Shown here in pieces: positions 8,364-61,200 of a stretch of DNA of 64,000 nt; position 1 is the stretch's first letter; every line of letters begins with the position of its first letter. The notes beneath the pieces are model-generated. The model did no database searches and had not been told where the DNA came from. It saw nothing but the letters and a program-made list of their open reading frames with translations. Location: positions 23,639-87,638 of the forward strand of contig NZ_JBGSLK010000006.1 in assembly GCF_041740695.1 (NCBI RefSeq), in the 5' to 3' direction. Origin of the DNA: Haliscomenobacter sp. (lineage in GTDB: Bacteria; Bacteroidota; Bacteroidia; Chitinophagales; Saprospiraceae). The position numbers and the translations under genes are program-made.

Positions 8364-10235
8364 ATGGAACGATTATTAAAATTCGTGGCACTTTTCGCCG
8401 TTTTTTTGCCCATTTGCCTCGGAGCACAACCTTTCAAATTTGCCCACATCAGCGATACGCATATCGGTAGCGGCGCAACTGCCGCCGAAGACCTGGAGCG
8501 TACGGTACGCGACATCAATGCTCAAGCTGATATTGCATTTGTCATTCATTCAGGGGACGTTACCGAATTTGGGTCGGATGTGGAACTAAAACAGGCCAAA
8601 AACATCCTTAGCCAGCTCAACAAACCCTTGTACATCGTACCTGGCAACCACGATACCAAGTGGTCCGAAAGTGGTTGCAATAGTTTCCGTGCCATTTTTG
8701 GCGCCGATCGATTCGTTTTTGACCATGCCGGGTATCGCTTCATTGGATGCAGCAGTGGCCCCAATATGCGCATGGCCCCAGGTTTGGTGCCTCGGGAGGA
8801 TCTGGTTTGGCTGGATTCCATCCTTACCGCAACTCCAGCTACACAGCCCATCGTTTTTGTCAACCATTACCCCCTGGATGAAGGTTTGGCCAATTGGTAC
8901 CAAGTGCTGGAAAAATTGAAAAAACGCAATACCCAACTAGCCCTCTGTGGGCATGGCCACCGCAACAAATTCCTGGACGCAGCCGGTATTCCCAACGTGA
9001 TGGGGCGTTCCAATTTGCGTGCCAAGGAGCCCGTGGGCGGGTATAACCTGGTCAATGTCCAGTTTGACACCCTGTATTATGCCGAACGCCGCCCGCTGCG
9101 TGCACAGGCACCAGAGGGCATTCAAGTGGTGGAAGCAGAAGGCGAAACCTTGCCCGTGTGGCATAAAGTTTTTCTCTACAAACACCGCTACGAAAACACC
9201 GACCAGCCTCAGCCTGATTTTTCCGTCAACGAAAAGTTTTTCCAGGTCAAAACCATTTGGAAATTTCAAGACAAAAGCGACGTGGGTGCAGGCATTGTAG
9301 CCAATGCCGAACTCGCCGTTTATCCCAATAGTGCTGGCCAAATTGTAGCCCTGGATGTAAAAACGGGTAAAAAGTTGTGGCACTACACTACCCGAGGTAA
9401 AATATTCTCCACCCCCGCCCTTGCAACTGATCGGGTGGTGGTCGCTTCCACCGATAGCAATGTTTATTGTTTGAACCTCAAAACAGGTAAACTCCTTTGG
9501 AAAACCAAGACCGGAAAATCGATCGTCGCTTCACCTTTAATTGATGGCGAACTGGTGTACTTGGGAAGCTCCGAAGGCAAGTTTCGGGCACTGAACCTGA
9601 AAGACGGTAGCTCCCGTTGGACTTTTAATGGGGTGGTCGATTTTGTGGAAAGTACCCCATGTGTGGATGCCGACCGGGTTTACTTCGGCGATTGGGGCAC
9701 CTTCTTTTATGCTTTGGACAAAAAAACGGGCAAATTCCTCTGGCGTTGGAGCAATGGGCAAAGTTCCCGCTTGTATTCCCCTGCCGCCTGCCTCCCGGTT
9801 GTAGCGGCTGGCAAGGTGTTTATCGCCGCGCCCGATCGCTATTTTACGGCACTGGATGCCGCTACAGGTAAAGAAGTGTGGCGGAGTAATTATGCCAAAG
9901 GCCGTGAATCAATCGGCATCTCCAGCGACCGCCAGGAACTGTACAGCAAAACCATGCAAGACTCGCTAGTCGTTTTTAACCTGAAGGGAGAGAAAGCCTG
10001 GAGCCTCAACCTGAAATTTGGCTATGAAATTGGCCCTTCACCCACCGTGGAAAAAGATGGCAAAATTTACATTGCCAGCGATAAAGGTGTGATTTATGTG
10101 GTGGATCGTGAAAAACGGCAACTACTCTGGGCGCATAAATTGTCGAATGCCCTGGTCAACAATGTTGTCCCACTTGGCAATGGGGAGATTCTGACCACCA
10201 CGATGGATGGTTGGGTCGCAAGACTCAAAGAGTAA
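8364..10235 (+). CDS. calcineurin-like metallophosphoesterase fused to PQQ/BamB-like beta-propeller repeats
   Basis: The N-terminal phosphoesterase motifs are 'HISDTHIG', 'GDVTEFG' and 'GNHD'. The C-terminal half has repeated 'G.VYCL...TGK..W' PQQ-like blades. It has a signal peptide. Confidence 0.7.
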   Translation: MERLLKFVALFAVFLPICLGAQPFKFAHISDTHIGSGATAAEDLERTVRDINAQADIAFVIHSGDVTEFGSDVELKQAKNILSQLNKPLYIVPGNHDTKWSESGCNSFRAIFGADRFVFDHAGYRFIGCSSGPNMRMAPGLVPREDLVWLDSILTATPATQPIVFVNHYPLDEGLANWYQVLEKLKKRNTQLALCGHGHRNKFLDAAGIPNVMGRSNLRAKEPVGGYNLVNVQFDTLYYAERRPLRAQAPEGIQVVEAEGETLPVWHKVFLYKHRYENTDQPQPDFSVNEKFFQVKTIWKFQDKSDVGAGIVANAELAVYPNSAGQIVALDVKTGKKLWHYTTRGKIFSTPALATDRVVVASTDSNVYCLNLKTGKLLWKTKTGKSIVASPLIDGELVYLGSSEGKFRALNLKDGSSRWTFNGVVDFVESTPCVDADRVYFGDWGTFFYALDKKTGKFLWRWSNGQSSRLYSPAACLPVVAAGKVFIAAPDRYFTALDAATGKEVWRSNYAKGRESIGISSDRQELYSKTMQDSLVVFNLKGEKAWSLNLKFGYEIGPSPTVEKDGKIYIASDKGVIYVVDREKRQLLWAHKLSNALVNNVVPLGNGEILTTTMDGWVARLKE

Positions 10236-10274: not shown

Positions 10275-10394
10275 GCTGAGGTGCCTCTTCGGTGCCTTTG
10301 GTTTCTTAGGTGGTAAAAATAAGTCCCTTCTACGAAGGAACGTTTCTCTTTTTCACCACCTAAGAAACCAAAGGCACCGAAGAGGCACCTCAGC
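10275..10394. repeat. 40-bp perfect inverted repeat with a 40-nt spacer, in a convergent intergenic region
   Basis: The left arm is GCTGAGGTGCCTCTTCGGTGCCTTTGGTTTCTTAGGTGGT (10275-10314). Its exact reverse complement lies at 10355-10394. The spacer holds a smaller hairpin (CCTTCtacGAAGG). Confidence 0.85.
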
Positions 10395-10402
10395 TTAAAA
10401 CT

Positions 10403-11446
10403 TTACGGTGCCGGATCCGGTATGGCCGCATGCACCGCTTCAATCTCACTCAACACCTCCGCTGACAAATTCACCTCAATACTGTCAATGTTTTCCTTCA
10501 ACTGCTCCATAGTCGTTGCCCCAATGATGTTGCTGGTCAAAAAAGGGCGACTGTTGACAAAACCCAGCGCCAACTGTGTCAAACTGAGCCCATGTTTTTC
10601 AGCAATCTGCAAATACTTTTCCACGGCCTCCAAACACTGCGGGCTATTGTAGCGGGTATATTGCTTGAAGAGATTGATTCGCGCCTTGCTCAAATCCTCA
10701 CCGGGCCGATTGAACTTGCCCGACAAACGGCCAAAACCCAGGGGCGAATAAGCCAATAAGCCCACTTTTTCTCGAATCGCCATTTCGGCCAAACCGACTT
10801 CAAACAAACGGTTCAGCAAATTGTAAGGGTTTTGAATGCTCACAACCCGTGGTAAATCGTGCCGCTCTGATTCCTGCAAAAAGCGCATCAGCCCCCAGGG
10901 TACTTCGTTGGAAAGCCCGATGTGGCGAATTTTCCCCGCTTTGACCAGTTCGTTCAAGGCATGTAATACTTCGTTGAAATTGTCAACCCAGGGATCCTGG
11001 GGGTCGTAAACAAAGCCCCGTTTGCCAAACATGTTCATTTTGCGCTCCGGCCAGTGCAGTTGGTAGAGGTCGATGTAATCGGTTTGTAGGCGCTGCAAAC
11101 TGCCCTCCAAAGCGGCATTGATTTGTGCTGCCGAAAAGTTAAAGGGGCCGCGGTCCAACTGATATAGGCTAAATGGGCCCGTCACTTTAGAAGCAAGGAT
11201 AATTTTATCCCGATTGCCCGTTTTTTTGAACCAGCTACCAATGATACGTTCGGTGCTGCCCTGGGTTTCCTTGCGGGCAGGAACGGAATACATTTCGGCA
11301 GTATCAAAAAAATTGATGCCACGTTCCAGGGCATAATCCATTTGGGCATGGCCTTCGGCTTCGGTGTTTTGTTCTCCAAATGTCATGGTGCCCAGGCAGA
11401 TGGCACTTACCTGGAGTTCAGTTTTTCCCAGTTGTCGGTATTGCAT
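10403..11446 (-). CDS. aldo/keto reductase (Tas/YajO-like NADP-dependent oxidoreductase)
   Basis: 'LGKTELQVSAICLGTMTFG', 'INFFDTAEMYS' and 'GLSNE' are canonical AKR motifs. The protein is 347 aa. Confidence 0.85.
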   Translation of the reverse strand: MQYRQLGKTELQVSAICLGTMTFGEQNTEAEGHAQMDYALERGINFFDTAEMYSVPARKETQGSTERIIGSWFKKTGNRDKIILASKVTGPFSLYQLDRGPFNFSAAQINAALEGSLQRLQTDYIDLYQLHWPERKMNMFGKRGFVYDPQDPWVDNFNEVLHALNELVKAGKIRHIGLSNEVPWGLMRFLQESERHDLPRVVSIQNPYNLLNRLFEVGLAEMAIREKVGLLAYSPLGFGRLSGKFNRPGEDLSKARINLFKQYTRYNSPQCLEAVEKYLQIAEKHGLSLTQLALGFVNSRPFLTSNIIGATTMEQLKENIDSIEVNLSAEVLSEIEAVHAAIPDPAP

Positions 11447-14056: not shown

Positions 14057-14060
14057 TGTG

Positions 14061-14148
14061 TAGGGGCGCCCCTATGTGGGTGCCCATATTTGCGCCCCCA
14101 TGTGGGTGCCCATTCGCCGTATCAAGGGCGCCCACATAGGGGCGCCCC
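14061..14148. repeat. GC-rich palindromic repeat cluster (GGGGCGCCCC + ATGTGGGTGCCCAT units)
   Basis: GGGGCGCCCCTATGTGGGTGCCC (14063-14085) is repeated as a near-perfect reverse complement at 14125-14147. Between them is a direct repeat of (T/C)ATGTGGGTGCCCAT. Confidence 0.7.
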
Positions 14149-14160
14149 AACAAACAACCC

Positions 14161-14709: not shown

Positions 14710-14720
14710 TAGTTCAGAGA

Positions 14721-14876
14721 GCTTGTTTAAGTTTTTGGGATCGGGCTGCAAACGGCCCATTTTTGACCAAATTTCGTTCCGAAAATGCTCATTTAGCGCT
14801 GCTAAACTCCGCTTTTCGTGCCTCATTTGGTCAAAAATGGCCTCGTTTTCGCCTTCACCCCAAAAACTTAAACAAG
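14721..14876. mobile_element. MITE-like element with 19-bp terminal inverted repeats (GCTTGTTTAAGTTTTTGGG ... CCCAAAAACTTAAACAAG) and a nested inner inverted repeat
   Basis: I read the terminal inverted repeats directly. The inner inverted repeat is CCATTTTTGACCAAAT ... ATTTGGTCAAAAATGG. The same CTTGTTTAAGTTTTT termini recur at 26574-26629. Confidence 0.5.
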
Positions 14877-14933
14877 TTCTAAGGCAGCGAATTAGACCAT
14901 TGTCGGCTCTATTCAATAAGACCTGTTAAACTT

Positions 14934-20017: not shown

Positions 20018-20755
20018 ATGAGTTGGCTGACAAACACGCTTTCACCAGTAGGACTGGGCTGGTTTGGCGGGTTCCTGACTTCCTCCATTGGTAAAAAAGT
20101 ACTGATGGCGCTGACAGGGCTTTTCCTGATCTCTTTTTTACCGATTCACTTGTTAGGTAATTTATACTTGATGAAAGATGATGGTGGACGTGATTTTAAT
20201 CTGTATGCGGAGTTTATGACGCACAACAAAATCATCAAAATAGTCTCTTACACCCTTTACCTGTCGATTGTACTGCATGCGATTCAGGGGCTGCTCTTGT
20301 GGAGACAAAACGCCAGCGCACGTGGGCAAAATTATGCGGTGAAGGTTACCCGTGCAGTAGGCACCAATGCTCGTGCTGCCACCCGTATGGGTTGGTTGGG
20401 TACAATTCTGCTGATTTTCATCTTGTTGCACATGTACCAGTTTTGGTTACAGATGAAGTTGGGCAATGTTCCAAGAGCAGCTTATGGAAATGGAGAAATA
20501 GTGAAGGATTTGTACAATCCAGTCATGGATGCCTTTGCCAATCCAACTTTCGTAATCATTTATGTGGTTTCCATGATTGCCATAGCATTCCACCTTTGGC
20601 ATGGTTTCCAAAGTGCCTTCCAGACGCTTGGATTGAATCACAGCAAATATACGCCCCTCATCAAGGCATTGGGTAAGGCGTATTCAGTGTTGATTCCTGC
20701 AGGTTTTGCGCTCATTCCAATATATGTTTATGGAGACACCATGGGATGGTGGTAG
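20018..20755 (+). CDS. sdhC: succinate dehydrogenase / fumarate reductase cytochrome b subunit (b558 family)
   Basis: It has about five TM helices with conserved His, it precedes sdhA and sdhB, and its start is the internal ATG 'MSWLTNTLSP'. Confidence 0.8.
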   Translation: MSWLTNTLSPVGLGWFGGFLTSSIGKKVLMALTGLFLISFLPIHLLGNLYLMKDDGGRDFNLYAEFMTHNKIIKIVSYTLYLSIVLHAIQGLLLWRQNASARGQNYAVKVTRAVGTNARAATRMGWLGTILLIFILLHMYQFWLQMKLGNVPRAAYGNGEIVKDLYNPVMDAFANPTFVIIYVVSMIAIAFHLWHGFQSAFQTLGLNHSKYTPLIKALGKAYSVLIPAGFALIPIYVYGDTMGWW

Positions 20756-20864
20756 GGACAACCCTGTGTGGTTGTCCGCATAAAAAGAGGAACCACACAG
20801 AGTTGCCCGTACGAATGCCCGAATTTCAGAAAATTGAATTTTTTCAATATAAACATTACACATC

Positions 20865-26573: not shown

Positions 26574-26629
26574 GCTTGTTTAAGTTTTTTTGGCAGAAGT
26601 AAAAAAGACTGCAAAAAAACTTAAACAAG
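26574..26629. repeat. short hairpin element with the same terminal inverted repeats as 14721-14876 (GCTTGTTTAAGTTTTTTT ... AAAAAAACTTAAACAAG)
   Basis: I read it directly. It sits between two minus-strand genes and may act as a terminator for the upstream one. Confidence 0.55.
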
Positions 26630-31040: not shown

Positions 31041-32960
31041 TTAAGCCTGTTCTTCTTTTTTATCCGTCTTGAGCATGTCCAACAATCTCAAGCCCAGCAT
31101 ACCGCCGATGGCACCATTGCCACCAGCACCACCTTCACCGGTGATGAGTACGTCCGGGATGATTTTAACTTTTTCCTGCCCAATCGTTTCCATCACTTTC
31201 ATCTTGGTAAAGTTGTCGCCCCCCATCGCTTCTACGGCGAGGCGGTATGCTTCGGCGCTAGACTGACCCACGGCTAGAGTCTTTTCAGCTTCCGCTTTAC
31301 CAGTGAGTTCAATTTTTTCGGCTTCGGCCTGCGCCATCAGTCTCACCTTTTCAGATTCGGCAGCAGCACTCATTTTGGTACGTTCGGCGTCGGCCGAGGC
31401 GATCATCTTGGTGCGTTCCGCTTCTGCTGAGGCGGCAATTTTTACCCCATTCGCTTCACCGGTCGATTTTTTCACGGCAGCATCGGCGATGCGTTCGGCG
31501 ATCAATACACCCTGATCGGCTTGGACGATCTGCTTTTGGATGTCGGCAATGGCGGTCTCTTTTTCAAGGGCCTGCCGGGTTTCCTGAGCCATTTTCTGGG
31601 TGTCGTAAGTCACCTTTTGTTCTTCGGCCAACTTGCGGTCGGTCAGTGTTTTCATCAGCGAATCGGGCGGTACGATGTCGCCAATCAGGGTGTCCACCCC
31701 GTGTACGTTGTATTCTTCCAGTACCTGGCCAATGTGTCGTTTTGCTGAATCCTGGCGGTCTTTACGCGAGGTCAGGAACGAGATCACATCGGCATCCTGG
31801 GCCGAGTTGCGGAAGTAGTTGCCAATGGTCGGTTCCAGTACCTGGCTGACCAGGTTGTGCATGCTACCAAAGCGAGCGATTACCTTGGGTGCCTCGGTGG
31901 CCGGGATGTGAATGATCTGCGACACATCGAGGTTGAAAGGGAAACCGTCTTTGGAACGTACTGTAATGGTAGACAAATGTTTGTCCAACATGTGTGACTC
32001 AGTGCGGGCGGTAGCCCAGTTGAGTACCAAGTTGGTGGTGGGTACCAATTCCACCTTATACAAATATTTATTAACGGGGTATTTACCAGGGCCAAGGGGT
32101 TCTGCCCAAACGCCTTTTTGGCCTTTGGACACAATGTTACCGTGACGGAATTCGTCGCCACTGAGGTCGACACCTTCTTTACCGTAGAAAGAGATGACTA
32201 CCCCCACGTTGCCGATCGGAATTTGCGTCATTTCATGTTCTTCAATTTGTGCAAACCAGGGGTTGAGGTTGTACGAACCTGCCAGGAGCACCTGCGGTTG
32301 TAAACCTTTGTTGCCGCCGCCGCGCAAAAAGGCATCGGCGTCCTGGAAGTTGTTGTGGTCGAGGACTTCGCGTCCGGCGATTTGTCCCATTTCAATCGGC
32401 GCACCATCCAGGGTCGTGATGACGCCCAGCATGTTTTCCTTGATTTGGTTCATCGGCGCCAATACAAGGTCGAACACGAAGGTATTGATCCTGTAAACCC
32501 CGGTAGTAATGTAGGCGGTTTGACGGCCTTTTTGACCACCGTTGCGGATGAAGGCGGCAGCGTCTTGGTAGGCGTCGCAATCTACACGTTTGCCCAGGAT
32601 CGAGTTGGTCGGCAATTCGGCGCCATCTTTAGCGATTAACAAACCAATTTGCCCGGGAGGAATCACGGTCAGTGGCTGTAGGTTGATTTCGTATTGCCAA
32701 ATCCAGTACCAGAAGTGAATTCCCGGGGCCAGGGTTTGGGCCTGGAAACCCGCTTCGCCATCAACCGCGATGATCCGGTTGGGCGGTAGTTCTTTCTTTT
32801 CGCCAAAAAGCGAAAACTTCAGTGTGACGAGTCCGATTTTGTCTTCCGGCACCAGAATAATTCCCAGCAGCCTGAACCAAAAACGGTAAGTGAGCAAAAA
32901 AATCAAAATGGCGAGGAAGATGCCACCCCACCATAAGGCAATCATACCAATAGGGTTCAT
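31041..32960 (-). CDS. flotillin / SPFH (band 7) domain protein with a C-terminal Ala/Glu-rich coiled-coil repeat
   Basis: It has N-terminal TM helices and an SPFH core. The C-terminus has the repeats 'AEAERTKMIASADAERTKMSAAAESEK...AEAEK'. Confidence 0.8.
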   Translation of the reverse strand: MNPIGMIALWWGGIFLAILIFLLTYRFWFRLLGIILVPEDKIGLVTLKFSLFGEKKELPPNRIIAVDGEAGFQAQTLAPGIHFWYWIWQYEINLQPLTVIPPGQIGLLIAKDGAELPTNSILGKRVDCDAYQDAAAFIRNGGQKGRQTAYITTGVYRINTFVFDLVLAPMNQIKENMLGVITTLDGAPIEMGQIAGREVLDHNNFQDADAFLRGGGNKGLQPQVLLAGSYNLNPWFAQIEEHEMTQIPIGNVGVVISFYGKEGVDLSGDEFRHGNIVSKGQKGVWAEPLGPGKYPVNKYLYKVELVPTTNLVLNWATARTESHMLDKHLSTITVRSKDGFPFNLDVSQIIHIPATEAPKVIARFGSMHNLVSQVLEPTIGNYFRNSAQDADVISFLTSRKDRQDSAKRHIGQVLEEYNVHGVDTLIGDIVPPDSLMKTLTDRKLAEEQKVTYDTQKMAQETRQALEKETAIADIQKQIVQADQGVLIAERIADAAVKKSTGEANGVKIAASAEAERTKMIASADAERTKMSAAAESEKVRLMAQAEAEKIELTGKAEAEKTLAVGQSSAEAYRLAVEAMGGDNFTKMKVMETIGQEKVKIIPDVLITGEGGAGGNGAIGGMLGLRLLDMLKTDKKEEQA

Positions 32961-33112
32961 GTTAAAAATTTTGAGTGTTTGTTATTTTTTGGTTTTGCTG
33001 ATCGTATGTTGAATTGCGATCATAGGGCAAGTATGGGGGTGGAAGGAGAAGATTTGCTATTTTATTCGATGACGCCGGATTGGAAAGCGATGAAGGTGGG
33101 GGAAATGGGGGT

Positions 33113-33982
33113 CTAGAAGATTTGGGTTTGTATAAAGATTTGAAAGGATCGATTTATGATGGGCTGAAACTCCTGTTCTATAAATGGCAAAAGGATGGTA
33201 TCAAAGTTGGATACGATGTTGATGTATACGAATGAGTATTCTACATTAGGCTTTCTTCCGTCAAATATTCTTTTAAAAATAAGGTTCATTTGGCGTTGAA
33301 ATTGATCAGGAGTGAGGGGTTCTATAGGGTTCAAAAGCTCTATCAATTGTTTGTTGAGGTCATGAAAAAATTGATTGATGATTGTTTGCCGCCGAATTCT
33401 CAACCCCTCACGGTTTAAGTTGTAAACATCAATGCTTATGTTACCAGAGTTGCTTTTTCCATGCAAAAACCCATCCTGATCTAAATATAAATGATCCAAA
33501 GGATCTACTATTTCTGGATTCAGCAAGAGAGGCTTCTCAGCTTGCATGGCTTCATGTAAAATCGAATAATGAGCGACATCGCTTGGATGGTTCAAAAGTC
33601 GAATTCCCGCAATTGGAAAGCGATTCCCTTTAGCACCTTTCCCATTGCAATTTTGACAAGCTAAAAGGAGATTTGACCATTCATTGCCCAGCCAATAATA
33701 ACCTTGATGGGTTTCTCCTGCTTTTAGGTCTTGTTGATCTAATTTTGCTTTAGGTCGGTAATGTTCTACCTGTAGAGGGGCGCTGTGGGTAATAGTGGAT
33801 TCACAATAGGCGCATTTATGGTGATAAATCTTGGATAAGGCAGTTTTGACCGGGGGGTGTTTGTAATTCCTGATGTACATACTTCCGTCTTGTGCCGCAA
33901 CAGCGGCAAGTGTTTGCTGTTGAGCAGTCTTTTGAGTAAGGTGACGTGGAATTGCCTCGAAGTCCTTATGTACTTTGATCAT
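33113..33982 (-). CDS. HNH endonuclease (TIGR02646-like), PtuB-like
   Basis: The HNH motifs are 'CAYCE...H(x)YRPK' and 'LLACQNCN..KG'. It overlaps the upstream ATPase gene by 4 bp. The local sequence is AT-rich. Confidence 0.65.
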   Translation of the reverse strand: MIKVHKDFEAIPRHLTQKTAQQQTLAAVAAQDGSMYIRNYKHPPVKTALSKIYHHKCAYCESTITHSAPLQVEHYRPKAKLDQQDLKAGETHQGYYWLGNEWSNLLLACQNCNGKGAKGNRFPIAGIRLLNHPSDVAHYSILHEAMQAEKPLLLNPEIVDPLDHLYLDQDGFLHGKSNSGNISIDVYNLNREGLRIRRQTIINQFFHDLNKQLIELLNPIEPLTPDQFQRQMNLIFKRIFDGRKPNVEYSFVYINIVSNFDTILLPFIEQEFQPIINRSFQIFIQTQIF

Positions 33983-35145
33983 TTCAATGCTTGCGCGAGC
34001 TTTTTTAAACGATTTTTAATTTCTTCATTTGCCATCGCTTCTTCGAAAGAGTCTTCAGTGAGTAAATCTTTCGGGCCAGTATTTGCCGTGGGAATAATTT
34101 CCTCAAGGTCAAAAATAGGTGAGGTAAGCAAGCTATTGGGCAGCAGCCTTGTCAAGTCAATATCCAATTTTTCAACAGTAATACCTGCTTCACTGCTTTG
34201 GTGTACTTTTAATACTACACTTTCTTTTGGTGCACCTAAAAGTGGGATGGGGCTGTGGGTGCTGGCGATGAACTGGATTTTTGGGAAAATTTCAGACAGA
34301 AGGCCGGGCAGGGCTTTTTGCCAGGTGGGGTGAAGGTGGACGTCGAGTTCGTCGATTAGGACGATGCCTTCTAATTGTTCCGGAGTACTAATTTCAGGTT
34401 GAGTATTAAATAGACGGATCACCATGTCTCCAATCATTGCAATAATATTACGATTACCTGAAGCCAATTGATTGAAGTTTTTTGCAGTATTAAGCTTTTC
34501 TCCAAGATCATCTTTTTCATAGAAAAAAACTTTGTCTTTTGCTACATCGACTTCTATCTTCTCAATATTGGGCATAAGTCGAAGGAATAAGCTTTTAATG
34601 GCTTCAACTCTTTTTTTGAGAAGGTTGACAAGCTTTTCGTCTTTATACATAAGTTCTGGCAAAGAACTTCTATAAGTCATCACCCTTAATTCTGGGTCAA
34701 TATCTAATAAGATGCCATCAGAGTTGAACAAACTGTATGATTGAGCACTTTTTTCCTCGCCAAAAACACTCACATTGAGTCTGGATGCGCCATATGCTAA
34801 AGTTTTTCGAATTAGATCGTCATCAGATGGTAAATCATTAACACCTGCAGATGCACCATCAAGTAGTCCCGTTGTAGCTTTGAAGTAAGATGATTTTCCA
34901 TGTCTTAAACCTATATTAATATCAAATTCGCCATCTTCTAAAATCAGTTTTTTATCTCTATTCCCAAACAACCCCACAAACAACGCCTGCAACACACTCG
35001 TCTTACCCCCTCCATTTTTCCCCGTCAAAAAAATCCACTTGGTATCAGCAGGAATACCTTCCACTGAGGTGTCTTTGATGCCTCGAAAGCCTTCGATGTG
35101 AAAAGAAGTAATGCCAAAGCTGGGACCGTTGCTCATATTGGTCAA
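33979..35145 (-). CDS. ABC/SMC-like AAA ATPase (AAA_15/AAA_21 type), PtuA-like
   Basis: The Walker A is 'LTGKNGGGKTSVLQALF'. The ABC-signature-like motif is 'LASGNRNII'. The Walker B is 'IVLIDELDVHLHP'. The H-loop is 'IASTHSP'. Confidence 0.65.
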   Translation of the reverse strand: MTNMSNGPSFGITSFHIEGFRGIKDTSVEGIPADTKWIFLTGKNGGGKTSVLQALFVGLFGNRDKKLILEDGEFDINIGLRHGKSSYFKATTGLLDGASAGVNDLPSDDDLIRKTLAYGASRLNVSVFGEEKSAQSYSLFNSDGILLDIDPELRVMTYRSSLPELMYKDEKLVNLLKKRVEAIKSLFLRLMPNIEKIEVDVAKDKVFFYEKDDLGEKLNTAKNFNQLASGNRNIIAMIGDMVIRLFNTQPEISTPEQLEGIVLIDELDVHLHPTWQKALPGLLSEIFPKIQFIASTHSPIPLLGAPKESVVLKVHQSSEAGITVEKLDIDLTRLLPNSLLTSPIFDLEEIIPTANTGPKDLLTEDSFEEAMANEEIKNRLKKLAQALK

Positions 35146-35190
35146 ATTTTACCACTAAAGTACGCCCTTTTTGGGAAAAAGGAAAGTGAG

Positions 35191-36069
35191 TTAATACTTC
35201 CGCCTCTTCCGCCACTCCTCCAAAATATTCAAATCCTGCTCATTCTTAATTAAGGTATGCAAATGAGGCGGAAGCTGCTCCTTGAGATCAGTTTCAGCCA
35301 AAGCGCTGGCGGGCAATTGTTCAAACAACAAAAGGCTGATCCAATCCAATAACTCGCTGGTGGAAGGCCGCTTTTTTAAACCCGTCACTTCGCGCAGCGC
35401 ATAAAACAATTGCAGGGCGTTGTTGAGCAATTCCTCGCGGATATTGGGAAAATGCACGTGGACAATGTCCAACATGGTAGCTTTATCCGGGAAACGGATG
35501 TAGTGGAAAAGGCAGCGCCGCAGGAAGGCATCCGGCAATTCTTTTTCGTTGTTGGAAGTGATGATGACGATGGGGCGGTTCACCGCTTTGATGGTTTGTT
35601 GCAGCTCGTACACATAAAACTCCATGCGGTCCAGTTCCAGCAATAAGTCATTGGGGAACTCGATGTCGGCTTTGTCAATTTCGTCGATGAGCAGTACCAC
35701 TGATTCGTCGGCGGTGAACGCTTCCCAGAGTTTGCCCTTTTTGATGTAGTGGCTGATGTCGTCTACACCCTCTTTGCCCAATTGGGAGTCGCGCAGGCGC
35801 GATACTGCGTCGTACTCATACAGGCCTTGTTGGGCCAAGGTAGTCGATTTGATGTGCCAAGTCAGCAGCTTTTTACCCAGCGCATTGGCAATCTCGTGGG
35901 CCAGTAGGGTTTTGCCCGTGCCCGGCTCGCCTTTAACCAGTAAGGGGCGTTGAAGATAAATGGCCGCATTGACAGCTATTTGCAATTCTGAGGTGGCGAC
36001 GTAAGAGGATGTTCCTTGAAATGACATAGCAGCAGTTAATTTTAGGGTTCCAGATTCCCCATCAGGCAC
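35191..36069 (-). CDS. MoxR-family AAA+ ATPase
   Basis: The Walker A is 'GEPGTGKT'. The Walker B is 'VLLIDEIDKA'. The sensor region is 'VIITSNNEKELP'. The track ORF uses a GTG start at 36069, and an alternative ATG start lies at 36027. Confidence 0.8.
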   Translation of the reverse strand: MPDGESGTLKLTAAMSFQGTSSYVATSELQIAVNAAIYLQRPLLVKGEPGTGKTLLAHEIANALGKKLLTWHIKSTTLAQQGLYEYDAVSRLRDSQLGKEGVDDISHYIKKGKLWEAFTADESVVLLIDEIDKADIEFPNDLLLELDRMEFYVYELQQTIKAVNRPIVIITSNNEKELPDAFLRRCLFHYIRFPDKATMLDIVHVHFPNIREELLNNALQLFYALREVTGLKKRPSTSELLDWISLLLFEQLPASALAETDLKEQLPPHLHTLIKNEQDLNILEEWRKRRKY

Positions 36070-36120
36070 CTCGGCTTCGCTCGGCGACCGATGGGGAATC
36101 TGGAACCCTAAAATTAACTG
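36034..36120. repeat. 30-bp perfect inverted repeat (CAGTTAATTTTAGGGTTCCAGATTCCCCATC) with a 26-nt GC-rich spacer
   Basis: The arms lie at 36034-36063 and 36090-36120. They sit in the divergent region between the MoxR gene and nqrA. Confidence 0.85.
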
Positions 36121-36243
36121 TTGTCGTGGATTTGCTCGAAAATATTTTTATGTACACTAGGAAAGAATATTTTTTTTACATTTGGAATGAATTGAAATTT
36201 TCATTTTGTTTTGTTGCGCTGCGCAAAATGCTAACCGAAAGAC

Positions 36244-37666
36244 CAAGTATCGCATGGAAAGTAGAATAGCAGAAGCTCCAACTGCAGACAGTCCTGAAGG
36301 AGAGCCAGTTATTGTGAAGCTGAAACGCGGCTTCGATGTTCACTTGTACGGGGAAGCTCCCAAAAAAGTCCATTCCGAGGTATCCGTAAATCGATTTGCT
36401 GTTCAAGCACCCAATTACCTGGGCTTGGCACCTATGCCAAAACTAATGGTAGAGGAGGGGCAGCACGTTTTGGCGGGTGAGGCTTTGTTTTTTGACAAAA
36501 ATCGACCGGAAGTCCTTTTTGTTGCACCAGTGAGTGGCGAATTGATTGCCATCAACCGGGGTGAGCGGCGAGCGATTCAAGAGCTGGTGATTCTGGCGGA
36601 TAGAACCATCCAATACCGCACGTACGACAAAATTCCTAGCCTGGATAGTTCACGAGAAGAACTGTTTGCCTTTTTACAAGAAAGCGGCGCCTGGTCCCTG
36701 TTTCGTCAGCGACCGTATAATCTTCTGGCTGATCCTGATGCGGTGCCAAGGGATATTTTTATCTCCACTTTTGATACAGCCCCTTTGGCGCCCGACCTCA
36801 ATCTGGTGGTCAGTGGCCGCGAAGCTGCTTTTCAAAAAGGCCTGGACGTGCTGGTCAAACTGACCACGGGTAAAGTATACCTGGGCCTTGACGCCCGTGG
36901 CAACGCGGTATCCAGCGCTTTTAGTCAGGCAAGAGGGGTGCAAAAAATCGGGTTCAAAGGTAAACATCCGGCTGGAAATGTAGGGATTCAAATCCACCAC
37001 ATTCGCCCAATTCGCTCCAGAGAAAAGGTATGGACGCTGGGTGTACAGGAAGTGATCACACTGGGTACCTTGTTTCTGGAAGGTAAATACGATGCATCGC
37101 GGATCGTCGCTTTGACGGGTTCTGCGCTTGACAAACCTGCTTATGTGCGTACCTATGCAGGGGCGAATCTTGGTGACTTGCTGAAAAACCAGGGTGTTGC
37201 TGCAAATTCCCGCATCATTTCCGGGGATGTACTCTCTGGCAAAACCAAAACAGCCGAGCAGTTTTTGAATGTTTACGACGATCAAGTCAGCGTCATTCCA
37301 GAAGGAAATGATTATGAAATGTTTGGTTGGTTGGCACCAATGAGCGCGAGGCCCTCCACTTCTCGTACATTTTTTAGTGGTATTCTGCCCTTTGGCTGGA
37401 TTTACAATGCCACGACGAATACCCACGGTGAAAAGCGCGCCTTTGTTATGACAGGTCAGTATGAAGATGTGCTGCCGATGGACATTTTTCCTCAACACTT
37501 GTTGAAGGCCATCATTACCAACGACATTGAACGCATCGAAGGATTGGGCATTCACGAAGTGGTAGAAGAGGATTTGGCAATCTGCGAGTTCGCCTGTACT
37601 TCCAAACAACCCTTGCAAAAAATCCTACGCGAGGGCATTGACATGATGATTAAAGAAGGGCTATAG
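36244..37666 (+). CDS. nqrA: Na+-translocating NADH:quinone oxidoreductase subunit A
   Basis: 'VKLKRGFDV' at the N-terminus is typical of NqrA, and it is followed by nqrB through nqrF. The start is an internal ATG of the track ORF. Confidence 0.85.
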
Positions 37667-48268: not shown

Positions 48269-48680
48269 TTGGAGTTCAAAAGTGTAAACAAATAAAAAAG
48301 GGATCCATCTGCAGCGGGAACAAAATCAATAAAAAACCGCTACAACTGGATCCCTTTGTGAATAATACAACACTAAAGTCACAGTGCCATATTGTGAACA
48401 AAATCAGACAAAATAAGGCGTACTATCATTGTGCATGTTTAATAAGCTTGGTAAAAAGTGCAGCCCGGAGGCTACACTTCGGATTTGTGGCTACAAGTAA
48501 TTAAGTTGGAACTTACATGGAAGGATCGTCTTCCTTTTCTGTTTGTTCTTAGGACAAAGTAAGGGGAAAAAGGGCGCAATTTAGGTGTCGTTTTACAGAA
48601 AAAAAAGATATAGGAGATTTGGGGATTTTGGTTAAATTTTGAGCAGTAAATTTCTGATTTTTAATATTTTAAAATTCTAG
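48269..48680. repeat. copy A of a noncoding direct repeat of about 400 bp (about 90-95% identical to copy B at 50289-50690)
   Basis: I aligned the two copies by eye. On the minus strand it ends with a strong terminator hairpin (AAAGGGATCCA...TGGATCCCTTT + T6) located at 48293-48360. Confidence 0.75.
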
Positions 48681-50091: not shown

Positions 50092-50288
50092 GGGTCGCTT
50101 GATGGTTGTGGAAGCTTTTGAAGGCTTGGTTTATTGGTCTTGCAAGATAAAAATAATTAATTGTTTGTGGAAAATAATTTTTGTTTGTTTTTTAAATAAT
50201 CGAACTTATCCTCAAATTGTTCAAACACTGTCCGAACAATTTGAAGATAAGTTTGATAAAACTGCTGGTAGAGGAACTTTGGTCAAGT

Positions 50289-50690
50289 TGGAGTTCAGAG
50301 GCGTATACAAACAAAAAAGGGATCCATTTGCAGCGGGAACAAAATCAATAAAAAACCGCTACATCTGGATCCCTTTGTGAATAATACAACACTAAGGTTA
50401 CAGTGCTATATTGTGAACAAAATCAGATAAAATAAGGCGTACTATCATTGTGCATGGTTAATAAGCTTGTGAAAAAGTGCAGCCCGGAGGCTACACTTCG
50501 GATTTGTGGCTACAAGTAATTAAGTAGGAACTTACATGGAAGGATCGTCTTCCTTTTCTGTTTGTTCTTAGGACAAAGTAAGGAGAAAAAGGGCAGGGTT
50601 TAGGTGTCATTTTGCAGAGTGAAATGATGGGAGAGATTTTGTGGTTTTGCTTGAATTTAGAACAGTAAATTATTGATTTTTATATAGTTA
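50289..50690. repeat. copy B of the noncoding direct repeat of about 400 bp
   Basis: See copy A. The terminator hairpin lies at about 50312-50378. Confidence 0.75.
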
Positions 50691-58200: not shown

Positions 58201-61200
58201 TATTGGGTATTTAAACCAGTTCCAATGTCTTGTCCCGTTTCATCTATGGTCCAGCTTTGACTAGTGGTGCCTGGCTCCGTCAAAGTAAATTGGAACCCTT
58301 GATTAGGGACGTAACGATAAACGATGGGGGTGCAATCCAGAGGGTTACACAACCAAATACTCCGGCAACAAATGTACCAGCGGCCATTCCAAAAATAACG
58401 TACAGATATTGTTCTACGAATACATGTTCCCGGAACAGGCAACAAGGATGATGCATTGCCAGTTCCAAGATTTTGACCAGTATCATCCACAATCCAGCTG
58501 ATGTTGCTCGCACCTGGTTTGTTTAAGTCAAATTGATATCCACTGGATTCGACGTTTGATACGAAGCGATAGTCAAAGTCGTAGCAATCAAAAGGATTAC
58601 ACAACCAGATGGTCCGGCAGCAAATGTACCATCGGCCATTCCAATAGTATTTGACGGTGATGGTGCGGAAAACGCAAGTACCAGGTCGTGGCAGTAAATT
58701 TGAGGTTGAGCCGCTGCCCAAGCCTTGGCCTGTATCATCTACAATCCAGCTGATGTTGCTGGCTCCGGTACGATTGAGCCGAAACTGGAACCCATCAGAA
58801 GTTTGACTGTACAAATAATCGAAATCAAAACATTCAAAAGGGTTGCTGACATAGACGTTGTAACAGCAGTATTCTAAACAACCGCTGGCATTGATGTATG
58901 GAAAACAAACTTCATAGTTGCCAACAGAAGGAAAAGTATACTCGAAATTATTGCCAGTCGCGTAGCTGATTTCTTGGTTGTTGACCAACCATCTTCGACC
59001 TGGAGCTATACTTTGGGTACTGCTAAAGGCAAATTTCAAACTTCCTCCCGTACCAGTATAACGGTAGGAAATTGAACCACAATTGTAGTTTTTTTGAGCT
59101 TGTTCACAACAATTAACAGAAAGCTGAAAAGCACCTGCGGAGCTGACAAATTGGCCATCTACTACAATGTAATAAGTACCTGGATCAAGGGTTATTGTAA
59201 TGGCCTCCTGGTTAGTGGTGCGATTGTCCGAAGAACTTTCGGCAACACATTGACTTGTAGCGCCAAATTGAATATTGTTACATTCTCTCAATAAAAAAAG
59301 GTCCAGATCCAACCCTAAAGTTTGGATGGCCATATTGATGGTAACTGGAGTACGTTGGCTCAACGTAAACTTATAGGCTTTTTCTGGCCCAACAAAAGTC
59401 GATGCAGTAAGACAATTGTAGGAACTAAGAATGTTTGTTTCAGCAACAGTAGATCCACTCAAGGTAGTTCCACAATTTATCGGAGTTGCTTTTTCACAAA
59501 TACTCCCGTTTTGCCCACAACTTACGGAGATCTGGAAGGCCCCCATCGAAGTGGTAAATTGCCCATCAACGATGATGTAATAGGTTCCAGGATCGAGGAT
59601 TCGAGTGATGTTTTCCCGATTGGAAATGCGATTGTCCGATGAACTTTCGGCAATACAGATGTCACCTGAAACTTTGAAAACGTCATTCTCTCCTGAAAAA
59701 TAGTTACAAACATCACCTAAAAGGAACAAATCAAGATCTAAACCTGCATTTTGGATGGCTAGGTCAATACTTACCGAAGTCCGCTGGGTTAAGACCAATT
59801 TGTATACCTTTTCAGGACCCAATAGGGTAAATCCTCCTAAACAGTCGTATTCCCGGAGCAAATTACTCTCGTTGACTGTAGTGCCGTTTAAGGTGTTGCC
59901 ACAACTGATGGGCATTGCCTTAGAACAAATACTTCCACCTTCATTGCCTCCACAAACCAGTGATAGCTGGAATGCACCTTGGGAGTAAGAAAATTGCCCG
60001 TCAATAACAATGTAATAGGTGCCAGGGCCTAAGGTTTTAGTAATATTCTCGCGGTTGGAACTGCGATTGTCCGAAGAACTCTCAGCAATGCAGATGTCAC
60101 CGGAAACTTTAAAAACATCATTCTCTCCTGAAAAATAGTTACAAACATCTCCCATTAAAAATAAATCCAAATCAAGACCGGAGGTTTGAATGGCCAAAGC
60201 GATTGAAACTGTTGTGGTTTGAGTTAAAGTGAATTTATACACTTTCTCTGGGCCAACTAAAGTAAACCCACCCAAACAGTCATAATTTTGCAGTTGATTG
60301 GTTCCGCCTACAGTTGTGCTATTGACCGTATTGCCACAACTGATGGGAACGGCTTTGGAACAAATACTCCCGCCACCTTCTCCACCGCCTCCGGTATTGC
60401 CACAATTTAAAGACAATTGGAAGGAACCCCTGGAGGTAGAAAATTGACCATCAATGACGATATAATAAGTACCTGGGTTTAAGGTTTTTGAAATAACCTC
60501 TTTATTGGACAATCGGTTATCACTTGAACTTTCAGCAATACATGAATTGTTACCACACCCGGAAAGCAAAAAAAGATCAAGGTCAAGACCTTGAGCCAGT
60601 ATACTCATGTCCAAAGTTACCGTAGTCGTTTGGCTGAGTGTAAAGGAATAAACCTTTTCTGGGCCAACTAAAGTAGACGCTGTTAAACAATTGTAGCTGC
60701 TTATGATATTGGTTTCGGAATTGGTACTGCCAGAAGTAGTACTCCCACAATTGATAGGAGTGGCTTTTTCACAAATATTACTCGGAGAACCCCCTCCTCC
60801 TTCGCCACCCCCGCCAGTGTTTACATTGCTGCAGCTCAACGACAATTGAAAGGAGCCTCTGGAAGTGCTATATTGACCGTCTACCACAATGTAATAAGTT
60901 CCTTCTTCCAGATAAGTGCTGATGTTTTCCAGATTGGAACTGCGATTGTCTGCACTACTTTCAGCAACACAATTACGGACTTCCCCGCTGCAGCCATCAA
61001 ATATAAATACATCCAAATCAAGCCCTAATGCCTGGATAGCCATTCTGACATTAACCGTCGTTGCTTGGCTAAGGGTAAAAGAATATACTTTGTCTGGACC
61101 GACTAAACTAGAAGGTAAACAATTGTAACTGGATATCGAATTTGTTTCCGAAGAAGTACTGCTATTTATGGTGTTCCCACAACTAATCGGGATAGCCTTT

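Follow-up and report, generated by a model that had tools for sequence, protein, structure and literature searches.

A perfect inverted repeat upstream of a core ATPase gene

The 5' leader of an AAA+ ATPase gene in Haliscomenobacter sp., located within the 64,000-nucleotide stretch of DNA analysed in this work (the window), contains a perfect inverted repeat with arms of 31 nt. Comparison with orthologous leaders suggests, with an estimated probability of about 0.6, that this palindrome is a single-copy, lineage-specific product of template switching during replication, by which an imperfect inverted repeat (a quasi-palindrome, QP) was corrected to a perfect one.

The arm CAGTTAATTTTAGGGTTCCAGATTCCCCATC occupies positions 36033–36063 and its exact reverse complement positions 36090–36120, with no mismatch among the 62 arm nucleotides. 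In the sense of the ATPase mRNA, which reads from the minus strand, 36090–36120 forms the 5' or distal arm and 36033–36063 the 3' or proximal arm, ending 5 nt from the ATG at 36027. An initial annotation of the sequence had described a 30-bp perfect inverted repeat lying 7 nt upstream of this ATG; the perfection of the repeat and its location just upstream of the gene are borne out, with the length corrected to 31 nt and the distance to 5 nt. The same annotation rightly placed a 26-nt GC-rich spacer between the arms (AGGCACCTCGGCTTCGCTCGGCGACC, 36064–36089, minus strand) and the whole structure in the divergent region shared with nqrA, which starts at 36254, and the 31-nt arms are indeed much longer than those of a typical operator or terminator. 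Pairing continues outward for three further positions with one mismatch, between 36030–36032 (CTG in the mRNA sense, minus strand) and 36121–36123 (CAA in the mRNA sense, minus strand, and CAG in relatives according to the leader comparison), giving 33 matches in 34 positions and a total length of 88–94 bp. It also partly enters the spacer, since a repeat search of the window returned arms of 41 nt with 90% pairing.

Folding predictions placed the structure far outside the range of shuffled sequences, with free energies of -67.7 kcal/mol for the minus-strand (ATPase-sense) RNA (z = -12.4), -71.8 kcal/mol for the plus-strand RNA (z = -12.1) and -39.2 kcal/mol for DNA (z = -10.7). The spacer is weakly self-complementary and contributes small inner helices to the fold (CGCC/GGUG and GC/GC). 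At its middle, as read from the sequence, lies the heptamer GCGAAGC (36074–36080, minus strand), the centre of which at 36077 nearly coincides with the axis of the palindrome at 36076.5.

Orthologous leaders reveal a native and a derived arm

To place the palindrome in an evolutionary context, ten orthologous leaders were gathered, by looking up the exact proteins of close homologues and by scanning metagenomes for the conserved start of the coding sequence. Identity to the window over the ATPase coding sequence is 91.5% for L016, 88.4% for L018, 87.8% for L020, 82–83% for L004, L014 and L015, 79% for L009 and 78% for L010; for L013 it is approximately 88%, measured over nqrA. Measured from the putative promoter -7 block to the ATG, the leader spans 121 nt in the window, 125 nt in L018, 120 nt in L004, 116 nt in L010, 103 nt in L009, 90 nt in L014, 68 nt in L016, 59 nt in L013 and 28 nt in L015. 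In close relatives, identity to the window is 86–96% from the nqrA ATG to the start of the leader core, much as for the coding sequence, and only 27–62% in the leader core. The pair L018 and L020 share 95.2% of their coding sequence and only 59% of the leader core, gaps included. On these alignments, the leader core stands out as a local hotspot for indels and rearrangements.

Despite this variability, parts of the window palindrome can be traced to native leader sequence. The outer 14–22 nt of the distal arm (AGTTAATTTTAGGG / TTATTTTTAGGGTTCC) have counterparts at the orthologous position in L004, L016, L013, L018 and L020, reading AGTTAATTTTAGGG in L004 and TTATTTTTAGGG(TTCC) in the other four. 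The core of the spacer, GAGCGAAGCCGAGGTGCC, recurs in L009 at the orthologous position, with a single mismatch (GAGCGAAGCCGAAGTGCC), and nowhere else in 191 kb comprising the window and the relatives' loci. Over the outer 17–22 nt, the distal arm differs from its counterparts at 2 of 18 positions in L016, 3 of 17 in L013 and 4 of 22 in L018. Changes cluster instead in the proximal arm, which, with indels counted, differs at 9 of 27 positions from L016, 8 of 27 from L013 and 7 of 27 from L018, each difference increasing the pairing with the distal arm. This assignment of direction covers the outer 22 nt or so of the arms. Within it, the reverse complement of a distal arm carrying CAGCAG, the state seen in L013 and L016, reproduces the window proximal arm GGAACCCTAAAATTAACTGCTG exactly; the proximal side thus complements CAGCAG and not the CAACAG now present in the window, and the change from CAGCAG to CAACAG in the distal flank accounts for the single outer mismatch. 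As judged from these comparisons, the distal arm and spacer are native and ancestral, and the proximal arm is the derived, copied side.

The same site holds imperfect or partial hairpins in several relatives. In L018 and L019, which carry the same leader, an inverted repeat with 27 matches in 37 positions is present (2 of 60 shuffles scored as high), and the leader folds with a minimum free energy of -33 to -29 kcal/mol (z = -3.5, or -4.2 for the core alone). L020 retains an 8-bp outer stem, TTTTAGGG/CCCTAAAA, and L009 has two stems, TTTTAAGA/TCTTAAAA (8/8) and AAACGG/CCGTTT (6/6). The leaders of L004, L010, L014 and L009 fold no better than shuffled sequence (z of -1.9 to +0.9), and the leader centre is wholly lost in L013, L016/L017 and L015.

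The leader cores of L018 (5900–6000) and L020 (2545–2645) are almost unrelated. By eye, CCCTGAAAGTCAGAAACC, from the 3' half of the L018 leader, looks similar to GGGTTCTGAGTTTCAG, from the 5' half of the L020 leader, once the latter is reverse-complemented. This likeness hints at further template switches of the inversion type at the leader site.

A probable template-switch origin for the palindrome

Quasi-palindromes in Escherichia coli are known to become 'perfect or more perfect' through intramolecular template switching (PMC7202029), and such switching can create a perfect stem in a single event and can mimic compensatory change (PMC8794818). The window leader carries the corresponding marks: the arms are exact reverse complements at 31 of 31 positions, an imperfect inverted repeat lies at the same site in L018/L019, L020 and L009, and the changes that distinguish the window are concentrated in one arm, include indels and without exception raise complementarity.

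The following course of events is proposed. The ancestral leader would have held an imperfect inverted repeat with the outer stem TTTTAGGG...CCCTAAAA, a GC-rich centre and the GCGAAGC mini-hairpin. During synthesis of the ATPase-sense strand, the nascent strand would have passed through the distal arm and then the spacer, folded back, and copied its own newly made distal arm as template before rejoining the proper template near CTG/CTATG. In a single such event, some 30 nt just before the ATG would be replaced by an exact reverse-complement copy of the distal arm; the one outer mismatch would stem from a G-to-A substitution that arose in the distal flank afterwards. The GCGAAGC at the axis is a plausible nucleus for the fold-back; d(GCGNAGC) is described as an extraordinarily stable DNA mini-hairpin (PMC13037366). 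The order in which the strand bearing GCGAAGC is synthesized (distal arm, spacer, proximal arm) agrees with the polarity deduced from the leader comparison. The deletions in L013, L016 and L015 join outer parts of the arms, as hairpin-mediated slippage would. Given that the 62 arm nucleotides hold no mismatch, the event probably took place recently compared with the split from any relative sampled. With a template switch as its origin, no function needs to be invoked to explain the palindrome.

The known experimental QP mutations correct a few bases in arms of approximately 10–20 bp. Here, comparison suggests that approximately 30 nt were replaced in a natural population, by a single event or a small number of them. 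In other respects the case resembles the template switches described by the Ripley model and recorded by the E. coli thyA and lacZ QP reporters (PMC7202029), in that an imperfect inverted repeat has been made perfect, the multi-nucleotide changes fall in one arm and are exactly templated by the other, and a stable central hairpin could nucleate the fold-back. It also resembles the stems described by Monttinen and Loytynoja in 2022 (PMC8794818), where a perfect stem in a transcribed region is copied from a neighbouring reverse complement and apparently compensatory differences exist between lineages at the same stem. Those stems, however, are functional and retained in structural RNA genes, whereas the window stem lies in an mRNA leader and has been deleted by sister lineages, which makes a function of the window hairpin doubtful.

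Several points weigh against this origin. Among the sequenced relatives, none is near enough to reveal what the leader looked like just before the event, as L016 (91.5%) and L013 (approximately 88%), the nearest, have lost the leader centre; the inner 12 nt of each arm are therefore unpolarised and the four switch points are proposals. The centre of the L018 leader is unrelated to the window spacer even though L018 is closer to the window than L009, which shares it, so that an extra replacement event is needed in L018. Some form of hairpin recurs at the leader site in four lineages, and the apparently compensatory GGG/CCC in L009, against AGA/TCT, could reflect selection for structure. In addition, single-copy status is that of the 64-kb window, and the promoter, transcription start and translational effect described below are predictions.

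Evidence from an independent assembly

Palindromes are a known cause of misassembly and the source is apparently a metagenome-derived genome, such that the repeat could conceivably be a fold-back chimera and absent from the organism itself. This was judged very unlikely. The repeat is internal to its contig with both flanks collinear with those of relatives, and a homologous imperfect palindrome is present both in L018 (in ENA and NCBI) and in L019, an independent Logan assembly. Furthermore, the Logan assembly of run SRR28170468 contains a contig (L002) that is 100% identical to the window and stops at 36062, 30 nt into the arm. Taking k = 31 for the Logan assembler, 30 nt equals k-1, and a perfect 31-nt inverted repeat present in the reads would branch a k = 31 graph at this very point. 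That an independent assembly branches exactly at the arm 31-mer makes an assembler-specific artefact unlikely. An exact-protein look-up of the window NqrA found it not on record, and nqrA is split across Logan contigs, with L001 beginning at 37551.

The palindrome does not belong to a known dispersed repeat

Terminal inverted repeats around a short centre, 88–94 bp in all, are also the architecture of a miniature inverted-repeat transposable element (MITE), and the palindrome could have arrived as a copy of a dispersed MITE or of a repetitive extragenic palindromic (REP)-like repeat inserted upstream of the ATPase gene. The initial annotation had raised such a mobile-element footprint, and the window does hold MITE-like (14718–14878 and 26575–26629) and REP-like (14059–14152 and 20752–20812) repeats. 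No second copy of the arm, however, was found in the 64-kb window at up to 3 mismatches (0 of 100 shuffles matched), and no arm-like sequence at up to 7 substitutions in the 191 kb of window and relatives' loci. An arm 20-mer had no match in Joint Genome Institute (JGI) metagenomes and, among 185,579 species-representative genomes, none beyond a lone match in a SAR324 metagenome-assembled genome; an arm 23-mer had no match in viral contigs. The SAR324 match was dismissed, being a single arm without partner in coding-like sequence where approximately one chance match is expected for a 20-mer in 596 Gb.

The local sequence also speaks against an insertion. The distal arm and spacer have homologous counterparts in the native leaders of relatives, no direct repeat indicative of a target-site duplication flanks either the 31-nt or the 34-nt arms, and the difference between the window and L013 or L016 exceeds a simple insertion and leaves no clean empty site. 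Although the palindrome shares its size of roughly 90 bp, intergenic position and hairpin potential with MITEs and with REP elements and their bacterial interspersed mosaic element (BIME) arrays, it differs from them in being single-copy, in lacking a target-site duplication and a GTAG-type head and in its homology to native leaders; REP and BIME elements are short imperfect palindromes that carry a conserved head of this type and number tens to hundreds of copies. Within the collections searched the palindrome is thus not a known dispersed repeat, and a mobile-element origin is given very little credence. The spacer was also considered as a dispersed motif of its own, being common to the distant L009 and not to the closer L018, and was set aside as no other copies occur in the window or the loci; the simpler reading, that the spacer is ancestral and was replaced in L018, was kept.

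The adjacent ATPase is a core gene

The gene downstream of the hairpin (35191–36027, minus strand; 837 bp, 278 aa) encodes an AAA_5/MoxR-like ATPase, as assigned from Pfam AAA_5/AAA matches, homologues and synteny with nqr, and is named 'AAA family ATPase [Haliscomenobacter sp.]' at NCBI. At least 8000 homologues were scored; the best 120 are 72–100% identical, and where names are given they are those of Haliscomenobacter, Saprospiraceae or Bacteroidota MoxR-family ATPases. A narrower family name was sought in NCBIfam, where only a MadB-like model matched (116 bits against a cut-off of 475), leaving no family beyond AAA_5/MoxR-like. A role as a Septu component was likewise rejected, the best PADLOC hits being weak matches to Walker motifs only. 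Every orthologous protein opens with M-[S/P]-F-Q-G-T-S from the ATG, and conservation does not extend upstream of it, from which it follows that the GTG at 36069, an alternative start that would have placed the repeat within the N-terminus, is not the start codon.

On the other side of the hairpin, nqrA (36254–37666, plus strand; Pfam NQRA_N, NQRA_2nd and NQRA_SLBB), with its start set to agree with that of the homologous genes called in L004, L016 and L018, is followed by nqrB–F on the plus strand. The ATPase gene adjoins nqr without PtuAB in L004, L008, L016/L017, L019 and L020, and tblastn searches with PtuA, PtuB and the flotillin of the window found no matches in the first set of relatives, indicating that these genes are not linked to the ATPase. 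The description of a 'MoxR/PtuAB-like cassette' in the initial annotation is therefore not upheld. On synteny and homology the ATPase is a core Saprospiraceae gene and not a defence component.

The Septu islet lies on the far side of the ATPase gene

The window does contain a Septu system, with adjacent genes for the ATPase PtuA (33979–35136, minus strand; PADLOC 1.3e-82) and the HNH protein PtuB (33113–33982, minus strand; PADLOC 3.7e-66), within an islet at approximately 33106–35190 (minus strand) delimited by blastn against L019 and L018. Beyond it is a gene for a flotillin-like SPFH protein (31041–32960, minus strand; Pfam domains). The gene order in L018 is nqrA, ATPase, a gene of 252 aa, PtuA, PtuB and flotillin, and in L019 nqrA, ATPase, the 252-aa gene and flotillin, both loci encoding the same ATPase protein. 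By blastn, the window matches the PtuAB-free L019 over 36300–35191 and again from 33105 onward, placing the Septu insertion at approximately 33106–35190, on the side of the ATPase gene away from the hairpin.

This arrangement bears on the suggestion that the palindrome marks a boundary, recombination or attachment (att) site of the islet. Proximity is the only argument in favour, the hairpin and islet being 843 bp apart and the islet having a GC content of 0.36–0.44, below that of its flanks. Between the two lies the whole core ATPase gene, no arm-like sequence was found at either islet junction, and related leaders persist in relatives without PtuAB. The comparison with genomes lacking the islet, recommended in the initial annotation, is decisive in this respect: the leader is the same in L018, where the site is filled, and in L019, where it is empty, which refutes the att-site interpretation and leaves a boundary role with an almost negligible probability.

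A single link between the hairpin and the defence genes remains, and it is a predicted one. The gap between the ATPase stop codon and the PtuA ATG at 35136 is 54 nt (35137–35190), and as no terminator is predicted within it, PtuAB may be read through from the ATPase promoter; alternatively, they may be expressed from a nearly leaderless mRNA. Near-consensus to a -7 element, TAAAATTTG occurs 6 nt before the PtuA ATG.

The Septu site itself is seen filled in L018 (7611–9843) and cleanly empty in L019 (7610–7667). The uncharacterised 252-aa gene between the ATPase gene and PtuA in L018 is missing from the window. The middle of PtuA (window positions approximately 34575–34970) is too diverged from L018 for blastn to align, and the flanking parts are 87% identical.

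Predicted promoters of the divergent region

Promoters in Bacteroidota carry a -7 element with the consensus TAHHTTTG, its G at position -5 (PMC6847099). The motif is enriched in the window, with 55 matches against 35 +/- 5.5 in shuffled sequence, which fits an origin in the Saprospiraceae and makes the motif a helpful guide to promoter positions here. A putative -7 element of the ATPase gene, TATTTTCG (36137–36144, minus strand), agrees at 5 of the 6 near-invariant positions and that of nqrA, TACATTTG (36177–36184, plus strand), is an exact match. The former belongs to a block, A[AT]ATTTTCG, that most orthologous leaders share, slightly altered in L013, L004, L014, L010 and L020; the latter is kept as CCAAATGTA in relatives where nqrA is adjacent. 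Transcription of the ATPase gene is accordingly predicted to start near 36132, giving a 105-nt 5' untranslated region (UTR) that would hold the whole hairpin, and the hairpin is predicted to lie upstream of the nqrA -7 element and outside the nqrA transcript.

The perfect dyad symmetry of the palindrome and its position between divergent promoters might suggest an operator, bound by a dimeric regulator of both the ATPase and nqr promoters. Arms of 31 bp set 26 nt apart are far outside the usual geometry of operators, however, and the structure lies downstream of the predicted ATPase transcription start and at least 57 nt upstream of the nqrA -7 box. It is also absent from the closest relatives, where the promoter blocks are identical, and no regulator gene is adjacent. 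An operator is hence regarded as highly improbable.

Other classes of element were screened and rejected. A combined sigma-70 promoter and terminator scan found nothing at the hairpin; the sigma-70 consensus is inapplicable to Bacteroidota, for which reason TAHHTTTG was used. An intrinsic terminator, in which a U-tract comes after a GC-rich stem, was not called; next to the stem stand CTGCTATG on the minus strand and TTGTCGTGG on the plus strand, and the structure lies between divergent gene starts rather than gene ends. An Rfam scan at a permissive E-value returned only plant and animal miRNA precursor models, scoring 39 and 26 bits where the gathering thresholds are 195 and 230; these are generic hits to a long hairpin.

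Predicted consequences for the ATPase mRNA

The stem would cover positions -6 to -93 of the predicted mRNA, leaving approximately 10 nt free at the 5' end and 5 nt ahead of the AUG. Ribosomes of Bacteroidota do not rely on Shine-Dalgarno pairing, and in Flavobacterium johnsoniae secondary structure near the start codon adjusts the level of initiation, with positions -20 to +20 as a rule unpaired (PMC6847099). With a stem of -67 kcal/mol at -6 to -93 in a phylum that keeps its initiation region open, translation of the ATPase is probably lowered. The hairpin may also stabilise or protect the 5' end of the ATPase mRNA, and at the DNA level the hairpin is predicted to be a hotspot for further deletion. 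The 'strong regulatory hairpin controlling the defense cassette' proposed in the initial annotation survives as a very strong hairpin, with regulation reduced to a predicted side effect on the ATPase mRNA, one that could reach PtuAB if these genes are co-transcribed.

Whether the hairpin is instead a selected cis-regulatory RNA or DNA structure (a translational repressor, thermosensor or 5' stabiliser) that was strengthened in the window lineage is a separate matter, since selection is compatible with a template-switch origin and adds a claim of function to it. Hairpins are found at the same place in the window, L018/L019 (z of -3.5 to -4.2), L020 (with its 8-bp outer stem) and L009, the outer stem differs between the window or L020 and L009 in a pair-preserving manner, the stem would fall entirely inside the predicted 5' UTR with its end 5 nt from the AUG, and PtuAB might be co-transcribed. 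Set against this, L013, L016/L017 and L015 have deleted the region while their ATPase proteins remain 93–99% identical, the leaders of L004, L010, L014 and L009 show no structure beyond that of shuffled sequence, the leader core is hypervariable, no Rfam family scored above noise, and template switching alone can mimic compensatory change (PMC8794818). The leaders are too rich in indels for an unbiased alignment, and a covariation count over the outer stem from hand-picked segments would be biased. On balance, selection for the structure is considered unlikely.

Stem-loops in 5' UTRs, such as RNA thermometers and the ompA-type 5' hairpin, block initiation or protect the 5' ends of mRNAs. The window hairpin is similar to these in forming a stable stem close to the predicted 5' end and abutting the start codon. 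At -67 kcal/mol, however, it is far too stable for the physiological melting of a thermometer, and unlike them it is not conserved among orthologues.

A more speculative and quite improbable extension is that the leader acts as a hairpin-based contingency locus, in which palindromes are repeatedly gained, perfected, rewritten and deleted by template switching. If so, expression of the ATPase, together with that of any downstream defence genes reached by read-through, would be toggled or tuned between close strains, and the hypervariability between L018 and L020 (95% against 59%) and the recurrence of hairpins would be selected features rather than neutral churn.

Other repeats in the window

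A second near-perfect palindrome, single-copy in the window, is present at 10275–10394 between the convergent open reading frames 8364–10235 (plus strand) and 10403–11446 (minus strand). It has 45-nt arms with 98% complementarity and a 30-nt spacer, and may represent either a terminator-like structure acting in both directions or a further product of template switching. By eye, it has the 9-mer GAGGTGCCT in common with the spacer at 36064–36089.

The REP-like elements mentioned above are GC-rich intergenic hairpins that begin (T)GTAGGG (GTAGGGGCGCCCCTATGTGGGTGCCC at 14059–14152 and GTAGGGACAACCCTGTGTGGTT at 20752–20812) and seem to belong to a single dispersed, GTAG-headed family. The two MITE-like elements, of approximately 160 bp (14718–14878) and 55 bp (26575–26629), have the inverted termini CTTGTTTAAGTTTTT...AAAAACTTAAACAAG in common and look like a small MITE family. 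A direct repeat of 300 nt with 95% identity (48269–48568 and 50288–50587) has its copies 2 kb apart, and five tandem copies of approximately 430 nt at 59119–60967, with 66–72% identity, are probably a repeated protein domain.

Implications

These results alter how the region should be understood. The hairpin is unrelated to the mobility or boundary of the Septu islet, and the 'MoxR' gene it precedes is a core gene rather than a defence gene. For annotators, they caution that long perfect palindromes beside defence islets need not be scars of mobile elements. The palindrome is striking, yet it is an ordinary mutational product of a known kind, in the hypervariable leader of a core gene. Taken together, the leaders provide a natural series of states at one site, imperfect in L018/L019, perfect in the window and deleted in L013, L016 and L015, which illustrates how a bacterial 5' UTR would acquire a long perfect stem by template switching and may lose it again.

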